A stretch of 64,000 nt of DNA from a virus: IMG/VR virus record IMGVR_UViG_3300010371_000034, positions 1-64,000 of that record. One strand, given 5' to 3'. The notes below the pieces were generated by a model. It was not told the DNA's origin, searched no databases, and saw nothing but the letters and a program-made list of their open reading frames with translations. Shown piece by piece: positions 2,140 through 17,435 of this stretch (its first letter is position 1; each line of letters opens with the position of its first letter). The position numbers and the translations under genes were made by a program.

Positions 2140-3359
2140 AGCGAACCCTCCACGAACGGGTCGGTCAGCCAGTCCAGTTGCTCACGCGGCCTGTCGGCGT
2201 TGAACCCGTCGCCCCATAGGGTAGACAGCATGTCGAAGTATTCCTCGTACATCGCTCCGACTCGCTCCAGCGAGTACAGCCGCCTGGCTCTGGTATTGAT
2301 GATCATCCTATCCAACCTGTCGGCGTTCTTGAGCGCCCAGACGAACTGCTCCATAGTCCTGCATCGGTAGCCGCTGACCCCGTGCTCCACCGTCTCGGTG
2401 AACGCGCCCCAGTCGGTAGATATCACTGGCGTGCCGCACAGCTGGGCCTCGACTCCCACGCCACCGAACGGCTCCAGGTACTGCGTTGGGCAGATGAACG
2501 ACTGCGCGTTGCCCATCAGGTCGGCTCGCTTCTTGGGGTCCGCGTATCCAACGAAGCCGACGTGCTTGGCGTTCAGCCGCATCCCATCAACCTGCAACAC
2601 GCCGTCCTTCAGTATGTGCGCCTCGCCCTGCCCGGCGACGATCAGCTTGATTCCTGCTCTGCGTGTGGCCTCGACCGCCAGCGCCAGGCCCTTGCGCTGA
2701 ATCAGCCTGCCAAGGAACAGGCAGTATGGATCGTTAGTGCGATTCCATGTAGGCATACCTGCTGGTATTCGAACAAATGGGAAGTCGTCTACGTCGAAAT
2801 AGTTGGGTATCACCGCGTCGAACGTCCTGCCGTCGACCGTCGAGCCGTCCCGCCACTGGCAGTAGACCGCGTGCATGTGGGCGTAGCTCTCGTAGACGCA
2901 GTGCGGCGCGAACGTGCCGTAGTAGCCGACGCCGAACTCCACCGCCGTGGTCAACTTGGGACCGTAGTGCCTGCCCTGCCGGAAGTGGTCGGCTATCGGC
3001 TTCTGCGAGCCGGCGATCAGGCACAGGAAGTCCCCCTTCTTAAGCTCGCGCTCCATCACCTCGACCGTCCGCCGCTTCTGCACCTGCCAGTACTCGGCTT
3101 TGGAGTCCCAGTCGATGGGGTAGACGTTCTTGGTCTCGTCGACGTGCCCGAACCATCGTCGCTGCTCCTCGGCGGTGATCACGTCGAAGTGCTTGTTGGC
3201 TATTACCTCGCTGCCCTCGACGCCGTAGTGCAGCACCTCATGCCCGCGCTTGGACATCATCTTGCAGAACTTGAGCACCTTCTGCTGGTACGCGCAGGCA
3301 CTGTGCTTCTTGGCGGTCGGTATGTGCGGCAATGCCACGACGTGCAACCTGTGCTTCAT
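2124..3359 (-). CDS. Glycosyltransferase, GT-B fold (GT4-like)
   Basis: FLGRLIQRKG and EPFGGVGVEAQLCGTPVISTDWGAFTETVEHG, the EX7E motif. Confidence 0.9.
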   Translation of the reverse strand: MKHRLHVVALPHIPTAKKHSACAYQQKVLKFCKMMSKRGHEVLHYGVEGSEVIANKHFDVITAEEQRRWFGHVDETKNVYPIDWDSKAEYWQVQKRRTVEVMERELKKGDFLCLIAGSQKPIADHFRQGRHYGPKLTTAVEFGVGYYGTFAPHCVYESYAHMHAVYCQWRDGSTVDGRTFDAVIPNYFDVDDFPFVRIPAGMPTWNRTNDPYCLFLGRLIQRKGLALAVEATRRAGIKLIVAGQGEAHILKDGVLQVDGMRLNAKHVGFVGYADPKKRADLMGNAQSFICPTQYLEPFGGVGVEAQLCGTPVISTDWGAFTETVEHGVSGYRCRTMEQFVWALKNADRLDRMIINTRARRLYSLERVGAMYEEYFDMLSTLWGDGFNADRPREQLDWLTDPFVEGSLWPSR

Positions 3360-3721
3360 GCTACTTCTCCCATCGATATGCTTCCGTGGATCAGATAGTT
3401 GACGGCGGAGTCCACCGTGCTGAGACCTGTAAGGAAATCTCCAGATGGCAACGGTAAGCCTCCGTCATAGTCTATTGCCCACGTAGAGTTCGGTTGCACG
3501 TTCTGCCGCACTAATACTTGGGCGGAGCTGGTCTGGATGATGCAAATTGAAGCGGAGTTTGAGATGTTTATCAATTGTATGCTGTCTATCGTTATGCACT
3601 CTACTTTGTATGCAGCCTGTCCCTGCGCATTTACGCCGCCGAATATGGTACCGGGCGCAAGTATTCGTTGACCGAATGCCCTTAGCATGCCAGGACCAGC
3701 CCTGAAAGGCATCGATTCCAT
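3356..3721 (-). CDS. Small beta-rich structural protein, paralog 3
   Basis: FRAGP...GGLPLPSGDFLTG; similar to 3733..4110 and 5436..5813. Confidence 0.7.
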   Translation of the reverse strand: MESMPFRAGPGMLRAFGQRILAPGTIFGGVNAQGQAAYKVECITIDSIQLINISNSASICIIQTSSAQVLVRQNVQPNSTWAIDYDGGLPLPSGDFLTGLSTVDSAVNYLIHGSISMGEVA

Positions 3722-3732
3722 TTTCAAGACTC

Positions 3733-4110
3733 CTACGTGCCGATGCCTACCTCGCCGTTGATGATTATGTCAAGCGCGTTGTTGACGTTGGCCGATCCAG
3801 TTATGAAATCGGCAGTTGACAGTCGCAGGCCACCTGGGTAGTTGAGCGTTGTCAAGCCGTTTACAGGTACTAAATCAGTTTTGGCCAACTCTGTGCCGGC
3901 CAGGCTGCCGCCAGATGCCCCCAGATACAATGTGAAGGTACCGCCGGAGCCGCCGCGGTCTACTATAGTGATTTGGTTCACCAGTATGTTCGTGTTGCTC
4001 CAAGGAGACGCCGTGGAGTTTGTGCCACCAGTCGTTATACCCGGATTCAGTATGTTGGTAACGATCGTGGTCAGCAGCAGCGGGCCGGATCGAAACTTTA
4101 CGTTTTGCAT
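3733..4110 (-). CDS. Small beta-rich structural protein, paralog 2
   Basis: MQNVKFRSGPL...YPGGLRLSTADFITG. Confidence 0.75.
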   Translation of the reverse strand: MQNVKFRSGPLLLTTIVTNILNPGITTGGTNSTASPWSNTNILVNQITIVDRGGSGGTFTLYLGASGGSLAGTELAKTDLVPVNGLTTLNYPGGLRLSTADFITGSANVNNALDIIINGEVGIGT

Positions 4111-4118
4111 CGCTCACC

Positions 4119-5402
4119 TCACGTCGCGTACAACTTGTCGGTAGGCTTGACCACCGCCATTGAATCGATTACTTCCTTCTTGGTGATCAATTCGGCCGCG
4201 ATCAGCTGGTCGACCACCTTTGTCACCCCCGCATCGATGCCGCTGGCGTAGTCGTGCAGAGCGATCAACCCGCCTGGTGCCAGGTGGCCCAGAGCGAAGT
4301 GGATGTCGCTGTTGACCGCATCGCCGGAGTGATCGCCGTCGACGAAGATGAAGTCGAAAAGCTGATCGGTCTGGTAATCGCAGCTCCTCGCCACGTGGAA
4401 CTTGACCTTGTCGGGGTATCCGTGCTTCTTGATGTTTACCATGAACTTGGCCAACGTCGACTGCGGCGCGGTGGTCGCCTGCCCGTCGAACGGGTCCACA
4501 CAATCGACCGACTCGGCTCTCGATGATATGTAGATGGTCGAGCGGCCGCAGTAGGAGCCGATCTCCAGCACCTTCTTGCCCTCCGCCAGCCTGGCCAGCG
4601 CGTGACCCTCGGCGCTGGTCAGCCACCCCTCCACGTCGGGATATTCTCCGATTGGCACCGTCGCCCCCCAGCTGACGTCCATCTCCTCGGAGCCCCACTT
4701 GCCCAGGTTCGGATACTCGGCCACTCCGTTGTGGTTGAGCTTGACCCTGCGCGTGCAGGCCACCTTGCCGCCCAGCATCTGTATCGCGCGGGAGAAGAAC
4801 CAGTCCTCCGGTATCATCTCGAACGACCACTTGCCGTCCTTCACCACGCCGCGGTTGGCCGTGGTGAAGTGGCAGATCAGCTGCCCGTCGACGGACGCCT
4901 TGGCCCACGGCCGGTCCAGCCGGCAGACGAAGCATCCGGTGTTGAGCAGCAGCCGCCTGTCCGGGTACCCGCAGTCGGCGGCGGTGAACGTGAACGGCAA
5001 GCGCGAGGCTTCCTTCATCGTTATCCGCCGCTCGATCTTGTAGGGATCGTCGACATGGTCGATCGCCGTCGAGGTCCTGCCGTGGTGGCTTTTGATCGGC
5101 GACAGCGCGCTTACCATGTCCGCTCCGCTGCGGTCTAGCTCCTCAAGCAGGATGTCCAGCCACCCGTCCTGCGCCTCGATGTCGTCGTGCAGCATGGCGA
5201 AGTGGGTGGCCTGCGGGTCATTGAGCGCCGCGAAGTACGGCTCGTCGAACGCCTGCGGCAGGAAAGACGACCTCGACAGCACCCGGATGATCACCCCCGG
5301 CGTCCACAGAGGAGAACCGGGTCGGGCGATGCCGTTCCAGAACGATTTGTGGGCGCCGGGGCAGTTGCCTCCGTACGCCGGGAACGCCGCGTAAATCTTC
5401 AT
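4119..5402 (-). CDS. GT-A-like glycosyltransferase fused to C-terminal class I SAM methyltransferase
   Basis: FAMLHDD, NTGCF, EDWFFSR; then VLEIGSYCGRST, FIFVDGDH, GGLIALHD. Confidence 0.85.
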   Translation of the reverse strand: MKIYAAFPAYGGNCPGAHKSFWNGIARPGSPLWTPGVIIRVLSRSSFLPQAFDEPYFAALNDPQATHFAMLHDDIEAQDGWLDILLEELDRSGADMVSALSPIKSHHGRTSTAIDHVDDPYKIERRITMKEASRLPFTFTAADCGYPDRRLLLNTGCFVCRLDRPWAKASVDGQLICHFTTANRGVVKDGKWSFEMIPEDWFFSRAIQMLGGKVACTRRVKLNHNGVAEYPNLGKWGSEEMDVSWGATVPIGEYPDVEGWLTSAEGHALARLAEGKKVLEIGSYCGRSTIYISSRAESVDCVDPFDGQATTAPQSTLAKFMVNIKKHGYPDKVKFHVARSCDYQTDQLFDFIFVDGDHSGDAVNSDIHFALGHLAPGGLIALHDYASGIDAGVTKVVDQLIAAELITKKEVIDSMAVVKPTDKLYAT

Positions 5403-13781: not shown

Positions 13782-14885
13782 TCATGGCCCGGTGATGATC
13801 GCCATGATCTGCTGGATCAGGGCAACCAGCTTTGTCGGGTCCGCGCCCGAGGAGAACCAGCCGAACACCAGCATGGCGATCTGGATCAGTTTGAGGAAGT
13901 TGATCTTGCCGACCGGGCTGCCGTGGCTGCTGACATAGTCGGCCACGCCGATCTCGACGTTCTGCCTGACCATCGGCGGCACCGGCATGTTGAGGAACGC
14001 CAGGAAGTCATTGATGAGCTGCGGCAGCTTGCTCATGTCGACGTTCCAGCCCGTCCCGCCGCCAGCGACGAATGTGCCGTCGGTGTTGAAGGTGATGCTC
14101 GCGGGAAGCGCGGTCGGCCACGTGCCGGGCGCCGGAGGAACCGGAGGCGTGGGCGGGGTAGGAGGTGTCGGTGGAACCGGAGGGGTCAGTGGCGGCACTC
14201 CTACCGTAGTGGGGTTGCGTACCCAAGCCTCGACGCAGGTGGACATGATCCACTTGTGGTCGACGAATCCGATGGTGCTCCAGGTGTACAGCAGGTAGCC
14301 CGGCTGAGACGCCGACAGGGCACTGGGCAGCGGGACTCCGAGCTGCTGGTAGAGCCAACCGGCCGGTCCGTATCCGCATAGCGCGACGCAGTGGTCGGTG
14401 TTGGGGAAGTTGCCGTGACCCAGCGAGTACCAGCCCTGGTTGTTGCCGGCGCCCGACGGTAGCGCGTTGGCATCGATGGCAATCTTGACCGGACCTTGGC
14501 TGATGGCGGACTGCAGCACCGTCTCGTTGCTGTAATCGACACCGGAGTACTTGCCATCATTGTATTGTTGTGAGCCAACCACGAACCCGTCGTTCTGCAT
14601 CATGTCCATTACTTGCGATAGGTCCGCGCCGTTCAGGACTCCATGCTTGCTGGCCCACGCCGTGACGGTGGCGGTCGGGATGAAGATTTCAGGCTGGTAG
14701 GTCGCCTTGGCGAACGCTTCCTCGGCCGTCACGCAGTCGCCGTACTGGTCGTTGCCCCACATGTCCAGCTTCTGCGGAATCCAGGCCCACTGTGGGGGCG
14801 GGGCCTTGATCACGGTGTGTGGGTGCGCCGCCAGCAGCTTGTGCCGCGGCGACTTGAGGGCGCCCCTCATGAGTTGGTTTGCCAT
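13782..14885 (-). CDS. Papain-like cysteine peptidase (candidate lysin)
   Basis: GNDQYGDCVTA (Cys), DHCVALCGY (His), YTWS; Pro/Thr linker and amphipathic tail. Confidence 0.7.
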   Translation of the reverse strand: MANQLMRGALKSPRHKLLAAHPHTVIKAPPPQWAWIPQKLDMWGNDQYGDCVTAEEAFAKATYQPEIFIPTATVTAWASKHGVLNGADLSQVMDMMQNDGFVVGSQQYNDGKYSGVDYSNETVLQSAISQGPVKIAIDANALPSGAGNNQGWYSLGHGNFPNTDHCVALCGYGPAGWLYQQLGVPLPSALSASQPGYLLYTWSTIGFVDHKWIMSTCVEAWVRNPTTVGVPPLTPPVPPTPPTPPTPPVPPAPGTWPTALPASITFNTDGTFVAGGGTGWNVDMSKLPQLINDFLAFLNMPVPPMVRQNVEIGVADYVSSHGSPVGKINFLKLIQIAMLVFGWFSSGADPTKLVALIQQIMAIITGP

Positions 14886-15540: not shown

Positions 15541-16254
15541 TCACACCGAGCCGGACGGGAAGGCGAAGATGCCCTGGTTCATGTACCCGCAGGTGAACGT
15601 CACCGCGTTGGCTCCGGAGCAGTCCGCCCCGGTCGAGCTGGTGCGGATACGCATGAAGGGGAACGACCAGGGCGTGATCGCGTCGATGATCGACGTGTAG
15701 AACTCGACACCCGTCAGGTCGTCGCGCGGGTACAGGCCCGGCGGCGTCGCGCCCGTCAGGTCTTCGGGGTTGAGGTGGGCGTCCCAGTTGCCGCCGAAGT
15801 CTCCCGCGCAGCCGATGAAGCCCAGGATGCCCTCGTTGTACGCCTGCTCGGTCGCCAGGTCGAAGTCCTCGAAGTTGTTGGTGACGATGTCGTCGCCCGT
15901 CACGTTGACCACCCAGCTGGTGTAGGCCAGCGCCGTGCCGCCGATCGAGATGCGGCTGCTCTTGGATGCTCTTTGATACGCGGAATCCACTGTTACCAGT
16001 GGCGCAGACTATACATTCACCTGACCGTGGCGGGGAGAAGCCGCTTCACTCTTCTAGGTCAGGGCCGGCGTGTTATGGCTTTCGCCATCCAAGGTTCTCA
16101 CCCTTGAGTCGTTACGGGGATCGTCGGGCACTCGATCTTACCCACGGGATTGCCGCTGGTCGTACAGTACGGTTCCCCCGTTTTGAGCCGGTCGTCGTGC
16201 TGAGTCACCCCAACACCGGGCTGTCACTCAACCCGTTGCTAAAATTTCGGCCAT
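15541..16254 (-). CDS. Tail tube protein, spliced (exons 16231-16254 and 15541-15978)
   Basis: RBS GGAGGG, ATG 16254; joined reading MAEILATG|YQRASKSSRISIGG, 153 aa. Tube-like composition and position. Confidence 0.75.
15979..16230 (-). ncRNA. Group I self-splicing intron, 252 nt, no ORF
   Basis: P1 CGGGU/GCCCG with U-G at the 5' splice site; P CAAAACGGGGGAA; Q GGCAATCCCGTG; R TAACGACT; S TGTATAGTC; P9 CCACTG-GTAA-CAGTGG; terminal G. Confidence 0.88.
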
Positions 16255-16258
16255 GTAG

Positions 16259-16498
16259 TTACCCTCCACTTTTCTTGGCTGTTCGTTTAGCGGCTCCTGC
16301 CCGTAAGTTAGCGAGGGCTTCCGGTCCACGCCTCATACCACGCAATTTTGCGACCCTCTTGGCAACGGTCTCGGCTGATTGCTTCTTGCCAAGAGCCCTT
16401 TGCCGTAACATCTCTATCTGTTCTGGTGTCTTCTTCAGCTTGTTTTTGTGCTCCTCCGACAATTTCCGGCCCGTTAGTTTCTGCCTTATCGCCTCAAT
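16259..16498 (-). pseudogene. NUMOD3-type homing endonuclease remnant
   Basis: GRKLSEEHKNKL, GKKQSAETVAKR repeats; lower GC; no catalytic domain. Confidence 0.7.
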
Positions 16499-16499
16499 G

Positions 16500-17435
16500 T
16501 CAACTGGTCGCGCCGAACACGTCCACCTCGAAGGTGATCGCGTTGGTCCCGTCCAGGTTGATCAGCTTGATGTTCTCGTGAGTCGAGTCGATGGTCACGA
16601 AGCCTGCGGCGATCGGATCGGCGTATCCGGTGAACCCGCCGGTCGCGACCGTCCGCTGACCGACCTCGACGCTGGGTACCGTCGCGCCGGTGTAGCCTGC
16701 ACCGCCCGCGATCAGCGTGACGGTGGTCGGCACTCCGGAGCCGTTGGTGACCACTCCCACCGTGCAGCCGGAGCCGCCGGCCTGCGTCGGGGAGACCAGG
16801 AACGAGCTGCTCTTGGGGTATCCGGTGCCGGCCGCGCCGATCGACACCGCGGACACCGCCCCGGCCGCGGTCAGGTCGAGCGTCAGGCCGGAGCCCGTGC
16901 TGCCGAAGATCGCCGCCGGAGTCGCCGGCCCGATGTTGGTGACCGCCCCTATCGACGTGGCGGTGGGCGGCGGGGATATGGTCGGGTCATCGGTGGCCGA
17001 CAGGAGGCGGAACGCGCAGCCCTTGATCCTGGCCAACGTCACAGCGGTGCGGCCGATGATGTCGGTCATCCCGTTGAGGTTGACCGTCGCCGAGCCGCCC
17101 GCGACCACTCCCTGCTGGAAAGAGAAGAACTCGTCGCATCCTCCGCTCTGGGCGTTGGTCGCTTGAGTGCCCAGCGACTGCCTCTTGTTGATCGTGCCGG
17201 TGTTGGTGGTCGGCGAGTAGGCCACGCCCGTAAGAGCCACCTGCGCGTTCCAGCTGATCGACAGGCCCAGCGAGCCGGTCAGGGCGGACAGCCCGGTGAA
17301 ACGCATCCTGCGAGCCTTGCGGCGGAACTTGCGCCACCGCCTGGGCTCGCGCTTCGGCGGAACCGCCGAGCAGTCCAGTTCGGCATGGTCCAGCAGCAGC
17401 AGTTCTCCCCTGCTATGTTCAACGATGTCGAGCAT
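16500..17435 (-). CDS. Virion structural protein
   Basis: Gly/Thr/Ala-rich beta-type protein in the tail module. Confidence 0.6.
   Translation of the reverse strand: MLDIVEHSRGELLLLDHAELDCSAVPPKREPRRWRKFRRKARRMRFTGLSALTGSLGLSISWNAQVALTGVAYSPTTNTGTINKRQSLGTQATNAQSGGCDEFFSFQQGVVAGGSATVNLNGMTDIIGRTAVTLARIKGCAFRLLSATDDPTISPPPTATSIGAVTNIGPATPAAIFGSTGSGLTLDLTAAGAVSAVSIGAAGTGYPKSSSFLVSPTQAGGSGCTVGVVTNGSGVPTTVTLIAGGAGYTGATVPSVEVGQRTVATGGFTGYADPIAAGFVTIDSTHENIKLINLDGTNAITFEVDVFGATS

Follow-up and report, generated by a model that had tools for sequence, protein, structure and literature searches.

What interrupts a phage tail-tube gene after its eighth codon, and can the gene still yield the protein that its relatives encode? 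The question arises on the (-) strand of the window, the whole 64-kb stretch of viral DNA that was analysed, where ORF calling returns a 149-aa frame with a GTG start (15990..15541 (-)). The original prediction placed a group I intron after codon 8 of this gene, missed by ORF calling, and the analysis upholds it at the exact coordinates and on the (-) strand. In the reading that we favour, with a probability of about 0.88, codon 8 of the tube gene is followed by a splicing intron of IA type and of the L1951 lineage, which probably spread together with a GIY-YIG gene. The sequence elements, the homology, the covariation and the restored N-terminus are observed directly, and from them we infer splicing itself and the mode of movement.

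Gene architecture and splice junction

A Shine-Dalgarno sequence that can be read directly, GGAGGG (16262..16267 (-)), lies 7 nt 5' of the ATG of exon 1 (16231..16254 (-)). Exon 1 consists of eight codons, ATG GCC GAA ATT TTA GCA ACG GGT (MAEILATG; ATG at 16254..16252, codon 8 GGT at 16233..16231), and its last base is U. The ORF-less intron (15979..16230 (-)) is 252 nt long; its first three bases form an in-frame TGA (16230..16228), and it is followed by TAT CAA AGA in frame with the 149-aa ORF. Exon 2 (15541..15978 (-)) comprises 145 codons and the stop, and is identified by 12 homologues and by a tail-tube/Hcp fold. Removal of the insert joins the two exons as MAEILATG|YQRASK and gives a product of 153 aa, the length typical of the family, which is predicted to begin MAEILATGYQRASKSS (the start of the 153-aa protein is also given as MAEILATGYQRASK).

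The 12 relatives, of 138-153 aa, come from a search of 5.8 billion proteins, and the tube homologues, the window's own protein excepted, are 50-73% identical. Nine of the 12 open with MAQILATGxQRAAKSS or a close variant (family consensus MAQILxTG), and uninterrupted homologues open alike (MAQILATGYQRAAK; for example MAEILATGYQRAMK); P0003 and P0010, both of 138 aa, have the N-terminus MKSSR. The N-terminus of P0006, MAEILATGYQRAMKSS, is identical to exon 1 at 8 of 8 residues and to the spliced MAEILATGYQRASK at 13 of 14, and in a tblastn search the eight-residue exon-1 match falls exactly on 16254..16231. The junction that had been predicted, ACGGGT|TATCAA, proves correct, as splicing gives back the conserved N-terminus of the family, and the proposed comparison with intronless homologues bears it out, uninterrupted relatives sharing the spliced N-terminus. 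Both splice sites can be slid by one base to give an identical mRNA; the intron ends in G only with the sites chosen here. The 5' and 3' boundaries obtained from protein homology are those obtained from RNA homology, and the two were reached independently.

Translation from the GTG called as the start (15988..15990 (-)) would give MDSAYQRASKSS (MDSAYQRASK), which lacks the conserved N-terminal residues. This GTG is an artefact, since it lies in the 3' strand of the P9 helix of the intron and has no Shine-Dalgarno sequence. Because exon 1 is only eight codons long, the tube protein has been mis-called, and its conserved N-terminus lost, both in the window phage and in L019, a contig with an intron at the same site that is described below.

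The tail-tube protein

That the interrupted gene encodes a tail tube had also been predicted, and this is borne out at the level of the fold. The AF2 model of the homologue P0006 (26 aligned relatives) has a mean pLDDT of 69.8, and its best Foldseek matches among solved structures, 8r5g_C, 6j0f_a, 6tba and 8gtb_A (TM 0.5-0.6), all belong to the tube/Hcp family. The structures matched include the phage 812 neck-tail junction, the PVC and AFP tubes, the GTA and R4C tail tubes, monocin and Hcp, and in a viral structure library TP901-1-type major tail and tail-tube proteins. The order of genes agrees with a tube, the gene being located downstream of the head genes and within the tail module. Searches for the protein gave no family in Pfam or PHROGs, no match by protein or by DNA in the phage GenBank collection, and none in the bacterial genomes scanned. 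The modelled fold thus points, with moderate confidence, to a tail tube, a tube-type beta-sandwich of ~150 aa. Two genes downstream of the tube gene, window 13782-14885 (-) encodes a 367-aa protein with a Pro/Thr-rich linker and a weak, sub-threshold match to the papain-family peptidases (PF00112, E 0.009).

Structure of the intron and proposed splicing

The insert folds into the two domains of a group I intron (all positions in this section are on the (-) strand). P1 (16235-16229/16223-16217) pairs the end of exon 1, C16235-G16234-G16233-G16232-U16231, with the guide, G16221-C16220-C16219-C16218-G16217, and is extended by U16230-G16229/C16223-A16222; the 5' exon therefore ends, as in group I introns, in a U that forms the U.G wobble at the splice site (U16231.G16221, within CGGGU/GCCCG). 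P2 (16216-16209/16204-16197) is closed by a GUGA loop. The P4-P6 domain (16181-16116) is made up of P4 (16181-16176/16149-16144), P5 (16172-16170/16155-16153), P5a (16167-16165/16158-16156), P6 (16143-16141/16118-16116) and P6a (16137-16133/16123-16119). The P3-P7-P8-P9 domain, with its P3/P7 pseudoknot, is formed by P3 (CCGGC 16191-16187/GCCGG 16069-16065), P7 (GACU 16110-16107/AGUC 16010-16007), P8 (16063-16058/16025-16020) and P9 (16002-15997/15992-15987, GUAA loop). P9.0 pairs GCG 16005-16003 with CGC 15982-15980, and the terminal G (omega G) is at 15979, where the last position of the 3' covariance model aligns. The guanosine-binding strands of P7 are present, reading CGACUC ... GUAUAGUC in the window against AGACUA ... 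GAUAUAGUC in the Rfam consensus.

Two further hairpins, P7.1 (16106-16090, CAAGG/CCUUG) and P7.2 (16088-16075, AUGGC-GAAA-GCCAU), are located between P7 and P3'. P7.1 and P7.2 are a hallmark of subgroup IA (PMC3984707), and in this position they mark the intron, as judged from its sequence, as one of IA type. P1, P2, P3, P7, P8, P9, P9.0 and the terminal G, all named in the original prediction, are present in the sequence; P4-P6, P7.1 and P7.2 were absent from it. An unconstrained MFE fold shows P1, P2, P3, P7.1, P7.2, P8, P9 and P9.0, the MFE z-score of the intron is only -1.75, and a P10 pairing, when sought, was weak.

Exogenous guanosine is used by every group I intron. In the proposed mechanism, the primary transcript of this ~79-kb uncultured phage would fold into the usual ribozyme core, guanosine would attack after U16231, held by the U.G wobble in P1, and exon 1, once released, would in turn attack downstream of G15979, the last base of the intron, so that ACGGGU and UAUCAA become joined. 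The spliced message would then direct synthesis of the 153-aa tube protein starting MAEILATGYQRASK, whilst the UGA at the first intron codon would presumably halt ribosomes that load on unspliced RNA. At the DNA level, the intron probably arrived and spread with a free-standing GIY-YIG gene just upstream of the tube gene, a gene that L019 retains in full and of which decay has left a C-terminal stub in the window.

Homology to 23S rRNA introns and the silence of Rfam

A profile and covariance models were built from 15 bacterial 23S rRNA L1951 introns, with no window sequence included. The nhmmer profile has one match in the 64-kb window, at 16230..15984 (E 7.7e-42; profile positions 6-279 of 284). 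Covariance modelling was carried out as two halves, of which the 3' domain (CM R1; P7, P7.1, P7.2, P8, P9.0 and P9) scores 124.3 bits at 16119..15979, full length and ending on G15979, and the 5' domain (CM R2; P2, P4, P5, P5a, P6 and P6a) scores 76.2 bits at 16217..16107, also full length. These matches, together with the restored conserved N-terminus, support the group I identity that had been proposed. CM R2 also weakly matches RF00028-positive introns at L005:3102-3208 (38.5 bits) and L035:4065-4177 (35.4 bits), which ties the class of the window intron to certified group I introns.

When the RNAalifold consensus of the rRNA introns is laid on the window, 53 of 58 evaluable pairs form, 12 of them via two-sided changes, and most of the broken pairs result from misalignment by MAFFT in P1 and the inner part of P8. 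In an alignment of 113 introns to the 3' model, pairing is seen in 96.5% of cells and falls to 33-43% when the partners are slid; it is somewhat inflated because the alignment was fitted to the structure of the model. The covariation score is 0.505, against 0.04-0.08 in slid controls. In this alignment P7.1 and P7.2 both covary across relatives, and P7 gives no covariation signal because it is invariant. The rRNA introns were gathered with a pattern taken from the window, and the set is therefore an ascertained one.

Rfam RF00028, at its gathering threshold and at E<=10, has no match in the 64-kb window, in 801 nt or 271 nt of it, or in the whole 78.8-kb record, so that by the RF00028 gathering threshold the window intron would not be called group I. 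The check with Infernal group I models that accompanied the original prediction is split, negative for RF00028 (no match at E<=10) and positive for both L1951-derived models. RF00028 is equally silent on the L1951 introns of L106 and L156, although the same Rfam run finds their LSU rRNA, and because it misses L1951 introns inside recognised 23S genes, its silence on the window looks like a blind spot and no refutation. The miss is likely due to P7.1/P7.2, as the consensus has no counterpart of these ~37 nt that separate P7 from P3'. Rfam's single group I model misses a whole IA-type class, and surveys that rely on RF00028 undercount such introns. In the 23S rRNA genes of L106 and L156, where this was checked, the upstream-neighbour introns go unmatched by RF00028 too.

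A second intron at the same site

The phage metagenome contig L019 also carries a tube homologue, and 255 nt are inserted in it at the identical codon (L019:1152-1406; junction MQLLGTG|SQRAAK). The Thr codon of exon 1 is ACG in the window and ACU in L019, a synonymous difference that is matched by the guide (GCCCG to GCCAG), and P1 accordingly reads CGGGU/GCCCG in the window and CUGGU/GCCAG in L019. The other helices also differ whilst remaining paired: from window to L019, P3 goes from CCGGC/GCCGG to CCAGC/GCUGG, P7.1 from CAAGG/CCUUG to UGGGG/CCCCA, P7.2 from AUGGC/GCCAU to AUGGA/UCCAU, P8 from CUGACC/GGUCAG to CUGGUC/GACCAG and P9 from CCACUG/CAGUGG to CCACAA/UUGUGG, and compensating changes are also counted in P2. 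Compensating changes in P1, P2, P3, P7.1, P7.2, P8 and P9 argue for active splicing, and the window intron is genuine and probably active.

These changes bear directly on the possibility that the intron is a dead relic and has lost the ability to splice, with the tube translated from GTG 15990 without its first eight conserved residues, or with the gene inactive. The lack of a match in Rfam would fit such a relic, as would the decay of the adjoining endonuclease gene, which suggests that the mobile unit is ageing; however, all core helices are intact and are kept so by compensating changes relative to both L019 and the rRNA introns, the pair of exon and guide in P1 included. Moreover, the P9 stem encloses GTG 15990, which lacks a Shine-Dalgarno sequence, whereas exon 1 has GGAGGG at ideal spacing, and a second tube gene was not found in the window, the genome being estimated as 94% complete. 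We consider a relic unlikely and a splicing intron to be the better reading.

In exon 2 of L019 (L019:1407-1823) an in-frame stop is found nine codons before the normal end (..NQGP*DRPTGSA*), which reflects either a sequencing error in this low-coverage contig or a decaying gene.

A free-standing endonuclease and repeated invasion of the tube gene

Between exon 1 and the upstream virion gene, which encodes 311 aa (16500..17435 (-)) and abuts the tube gene in intron-less relatives (tblastn synteny), the window holds a decayed free-standing GIY-YIG/NUMOD3 homing-endonuclease gene (16259..16498 (-)), of which only the C-terminal ~79 codons are left. The stub has no ATG or GTG start, and its only TTG, at 16462, would give 67 aa; it is 45% identical to residues 204-267 of the L019 endonuclease (E 5e-11). 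The gap between the 311-aa gene and the tube gene is 245 nt in the window, compared with 9-57 nt in eight intron-less loci, and has ~50% GC against 65-75% around it. The same gap in L019 contains an intact 282-aa GIY-YIG/NUMOD3 endonuclease gene (L019:295-1143; phrog_314 'homing endonuclease', E 1e-27; Pfam GIY-YIG and NUMOD3 matches below threshold), and homologous genes are found at this position in L005/L027 and L003/L016, the L005 copy being intact.

An ORF-less intron with a free-standing endonuclease is the layout of collaborative homing, exemplified by the ORF-less psbA intron of cyanophage S-PM2 with F-CphI and by T4-type mobE/I-TevIII (PMC3984707, PMC2790892). In contrast to these pairs, the window has a 79-codon C-terminal remnant of the endonuclease, and L003 and L016 carry the endonuclease upstream of an intron-less tube gene. 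The locus and its relatives offer a natural system for testing collaborative homing, as well as intron transfer between rRNA and phage protein genes.

The endonuclease ORF of L019 overlaps exon 1 by 13 nt. In L003 (L003:2090-3426) and also in L016, a 217-aa GIY-YIG endonuclease gene homologous to that of L019 precedes the intron-less tube gene, whose usual start in L003 reads ACG after GGAGGG; the only ATG there is 11 codons upstream and overlaps the end of the endonuclease gene. The endonuclease cassette may carry or replace the first codons of the tube gene.

Introns occur at several sites in the tube gene. The L1951-type intron follows codon 8 in the window and in L019. The tube homologue at L015:667-950 contains an unrelated group I intron (RF00028, 73.7 bits at 690-911), inserted 12 nt downstream of the window site (..KQRA|AKTSR), and has no endonuclease gene upstream. 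The tube gene of L005 (L005:1797-3641 = L027, IMGVR_UViG_3300021476_000040) has two RF00028-positive introns, near codons 6 and 38 (2777-2956 at 62 bits and 3081-3266 at 51.5 bits), with a 303-aa GIY-YIG endonuclease gene directly upstream of its 16-nt exon 1; we infer the exon boundaries 2726-2741 | 2990-... for this gene. Read from these sequences, the 5' end of the tube gene is a site that different group I introns have invaded at least three times, beside a shared free-standing endonuclease.

The original prediction went further and suggested that tube synthesis, being dependent on guanosine-driven splicing, may be linked to GTP/alarmone status, in which case splicing would act as a control point. 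Group I splicing does require a guanosine cofactor, as is established chemistry, and the tube gene is a highly expressed late gene, but no sensor element lies inside or beside the intron and the 64-kb window has no riboswitch or other Rfam match. Close relatives are intron-less, and other phages carry unrelated introns at other sites of the same gene; such a combination of intron-less close relatives with different introns at different sites is what selfish invasion leaves behind, and it does not fit a conserved regulator. The suggested link finds no support here and is less probable still than a relic. A gap crossed without RNA splicing can be dismissed, since, although a glycine codon followed by a stop resembles the take-off site of T4 gene 60, translational bypassing of the 252-nt gap is ruled out by the lack of a matching landing codon (GCG precedes UAU), and a group II intron or IStron is contradicted by the full-length homology of the insert to group I introns and by the lack of any transposase or reverse-transcriptase ORF.

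Comparison with known phage introns

A selfish intron in a virion gene has precedents. RT-PCR has documented the splicing of introns in capsid and tail genes of phages, and the published cases include Tuc2009, LittleE and BAKA (PMC3706429); the novelty implied for a tail-gene intron in the original prediction falls away. The cluster J mycobacteriophages (LittleE capsid; BAKA/Optimus minor tail) share with the window small introns in virion structural genes, high G+C, a U at the exon end and a G at the intron end, and discovery via intron-less relatives (PMC3706429). The BAKA intron, of 265 bp (PMC3706429), is ORF-less, like the 252-nt window intron. They differ in that cluster J splicing was shown by RT-PCR (PMC3706429) whilst splicing in the window is predicted from sequence, and in the host gene, which is a capsid or minor tail gene in cluster J and the tube gene, after codon 8, in the window. 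No sequence match to the window feature was found in the phage GenBank collection.

The T4 td, nrdB and nrdD introns belong to subgroup IA2; they have P7.1 and P7.2 and reach an in-frame stop shortly beyond the 5' splice site. The window intron is like them a protein-gene IA intron with P7.1/P7.2 and an early in-frame stop, with a putative resemblance to the td sequence; the T4 introns differ in having the endonuclease ORF inside the intron and in residing in nucleotide-metabolism genes. The window intron is a real but ordinary selfish element and no new kind of element, and its modest interest lies in the link to rRNA introns and in the useful warning on Rfam coverage.

Relationship to rRNA introns and possible origin

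A pattern derived from the window and L019 inserts, TAACGACT..TGAANGTATAGTC, detected one further viral copy (L035) and >120 loci in bacterial genomes, mostly insertions in 23S or 16S rRNA. L036 and L039, also from pattern scans, do not look like intron relatives, and the exact 16-mer GATCCCCGTAACGACT gave chance matches only in viral contigs. The closest relatives are ~17 ORF-less inserts of 270-300 nt located after ...UUGUCGGGU in 23S rRNA; 15 or more ORF-less L1951-type copies are found in Gammaproteobacteria and other MAGs (loci L054-L156), and in L066 and L077 an L1917 intron precedes the L1951-type site by 34 nt. In a FastTree analysis of the 3' domain, L1951 introns make up 17 of the 21 members of the clade that holds the window (support 0.96), and L019 joins at the next node (support 0.81); this tree comes from a short model-fitted alignment of an ascertained set, with an arbitrary root, and the direction of transfer is not readable from it. 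By this homology, the window intron is assigned to the lineage of L1951 23S rRNA introns.

Many 23S genes (L106, L156 and ~15 further MAG loci, L054-L135) carry, besides the L1951 intron, a second one at L1931 or L1917, 20 or 34 nt away, an arrangement shared with Coxiella. The 34-nt spacing in L066 and L077 matches the 34-bp exon named in the title of a study of the Coxiella introns, and Cbu.L1951 is presumably labelled IA3. Both introns in the 23S rRNA of Coxiella burnetii, Cbu_L1951 being one of them, are self-splicing group I introns (PMC4990558; site table PMC1995217).

The L1951 introns of the bacterial genomes scanned (15 or more copies) resemble the window intron in sequence and structure over the full length, in the P1 exon CGGGU with guide GCCCG, in P7.1 and P7.2 and in the GNRA loops on P2 and P9. 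They differ in being inserted after U1951 of host rRNA, whereas the window intron resides in a phage protein-coding gene, and the 3' exons are unrelated, UAUCAA in the window and AAGUUC in the L1951 introns. Cbu_L1951 is 720 nt long with a LAGLIDADG ORF (PMC1995217), in contrast to the ORF-less window intron with its GIY-YIG gene outside.

Ectopic transposition needs only 4-6 nt of guide complementarity (PMC3984707), and identical guide pairing with unrelated 3' exons fits such an event. Tentatively, and on balance doubtfully, an rRNA L1951 intron may have entered the mRNA or gene of the tube where nothing but the 5-6 guide-pairing nt (CGGGU) is shared, the signature of ectopic transposition of the reverse-splicing type, and may then have been kept by the free-standing GIY-YIG endonuclease targeting the 5' end of the tube gene. 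If true, transfer from rRNA to the tube gene with such upkeep would explain why the first ~40 codons have taken up three or more unrelated introns.

In L035 (L035:3216-5058), the window-type intron (~3690-4016) interrupts a different virion gene, putatively tail-fibre-like by eye, whose 158-aa N-terminal part ends ...LMDASSGGNELVYAG. Another intron, which RF00028 does recognise (4045-4272, 70.8 bits), follows it within ~30 nt, and an HNH-type ORF (4441-5058) comes next.
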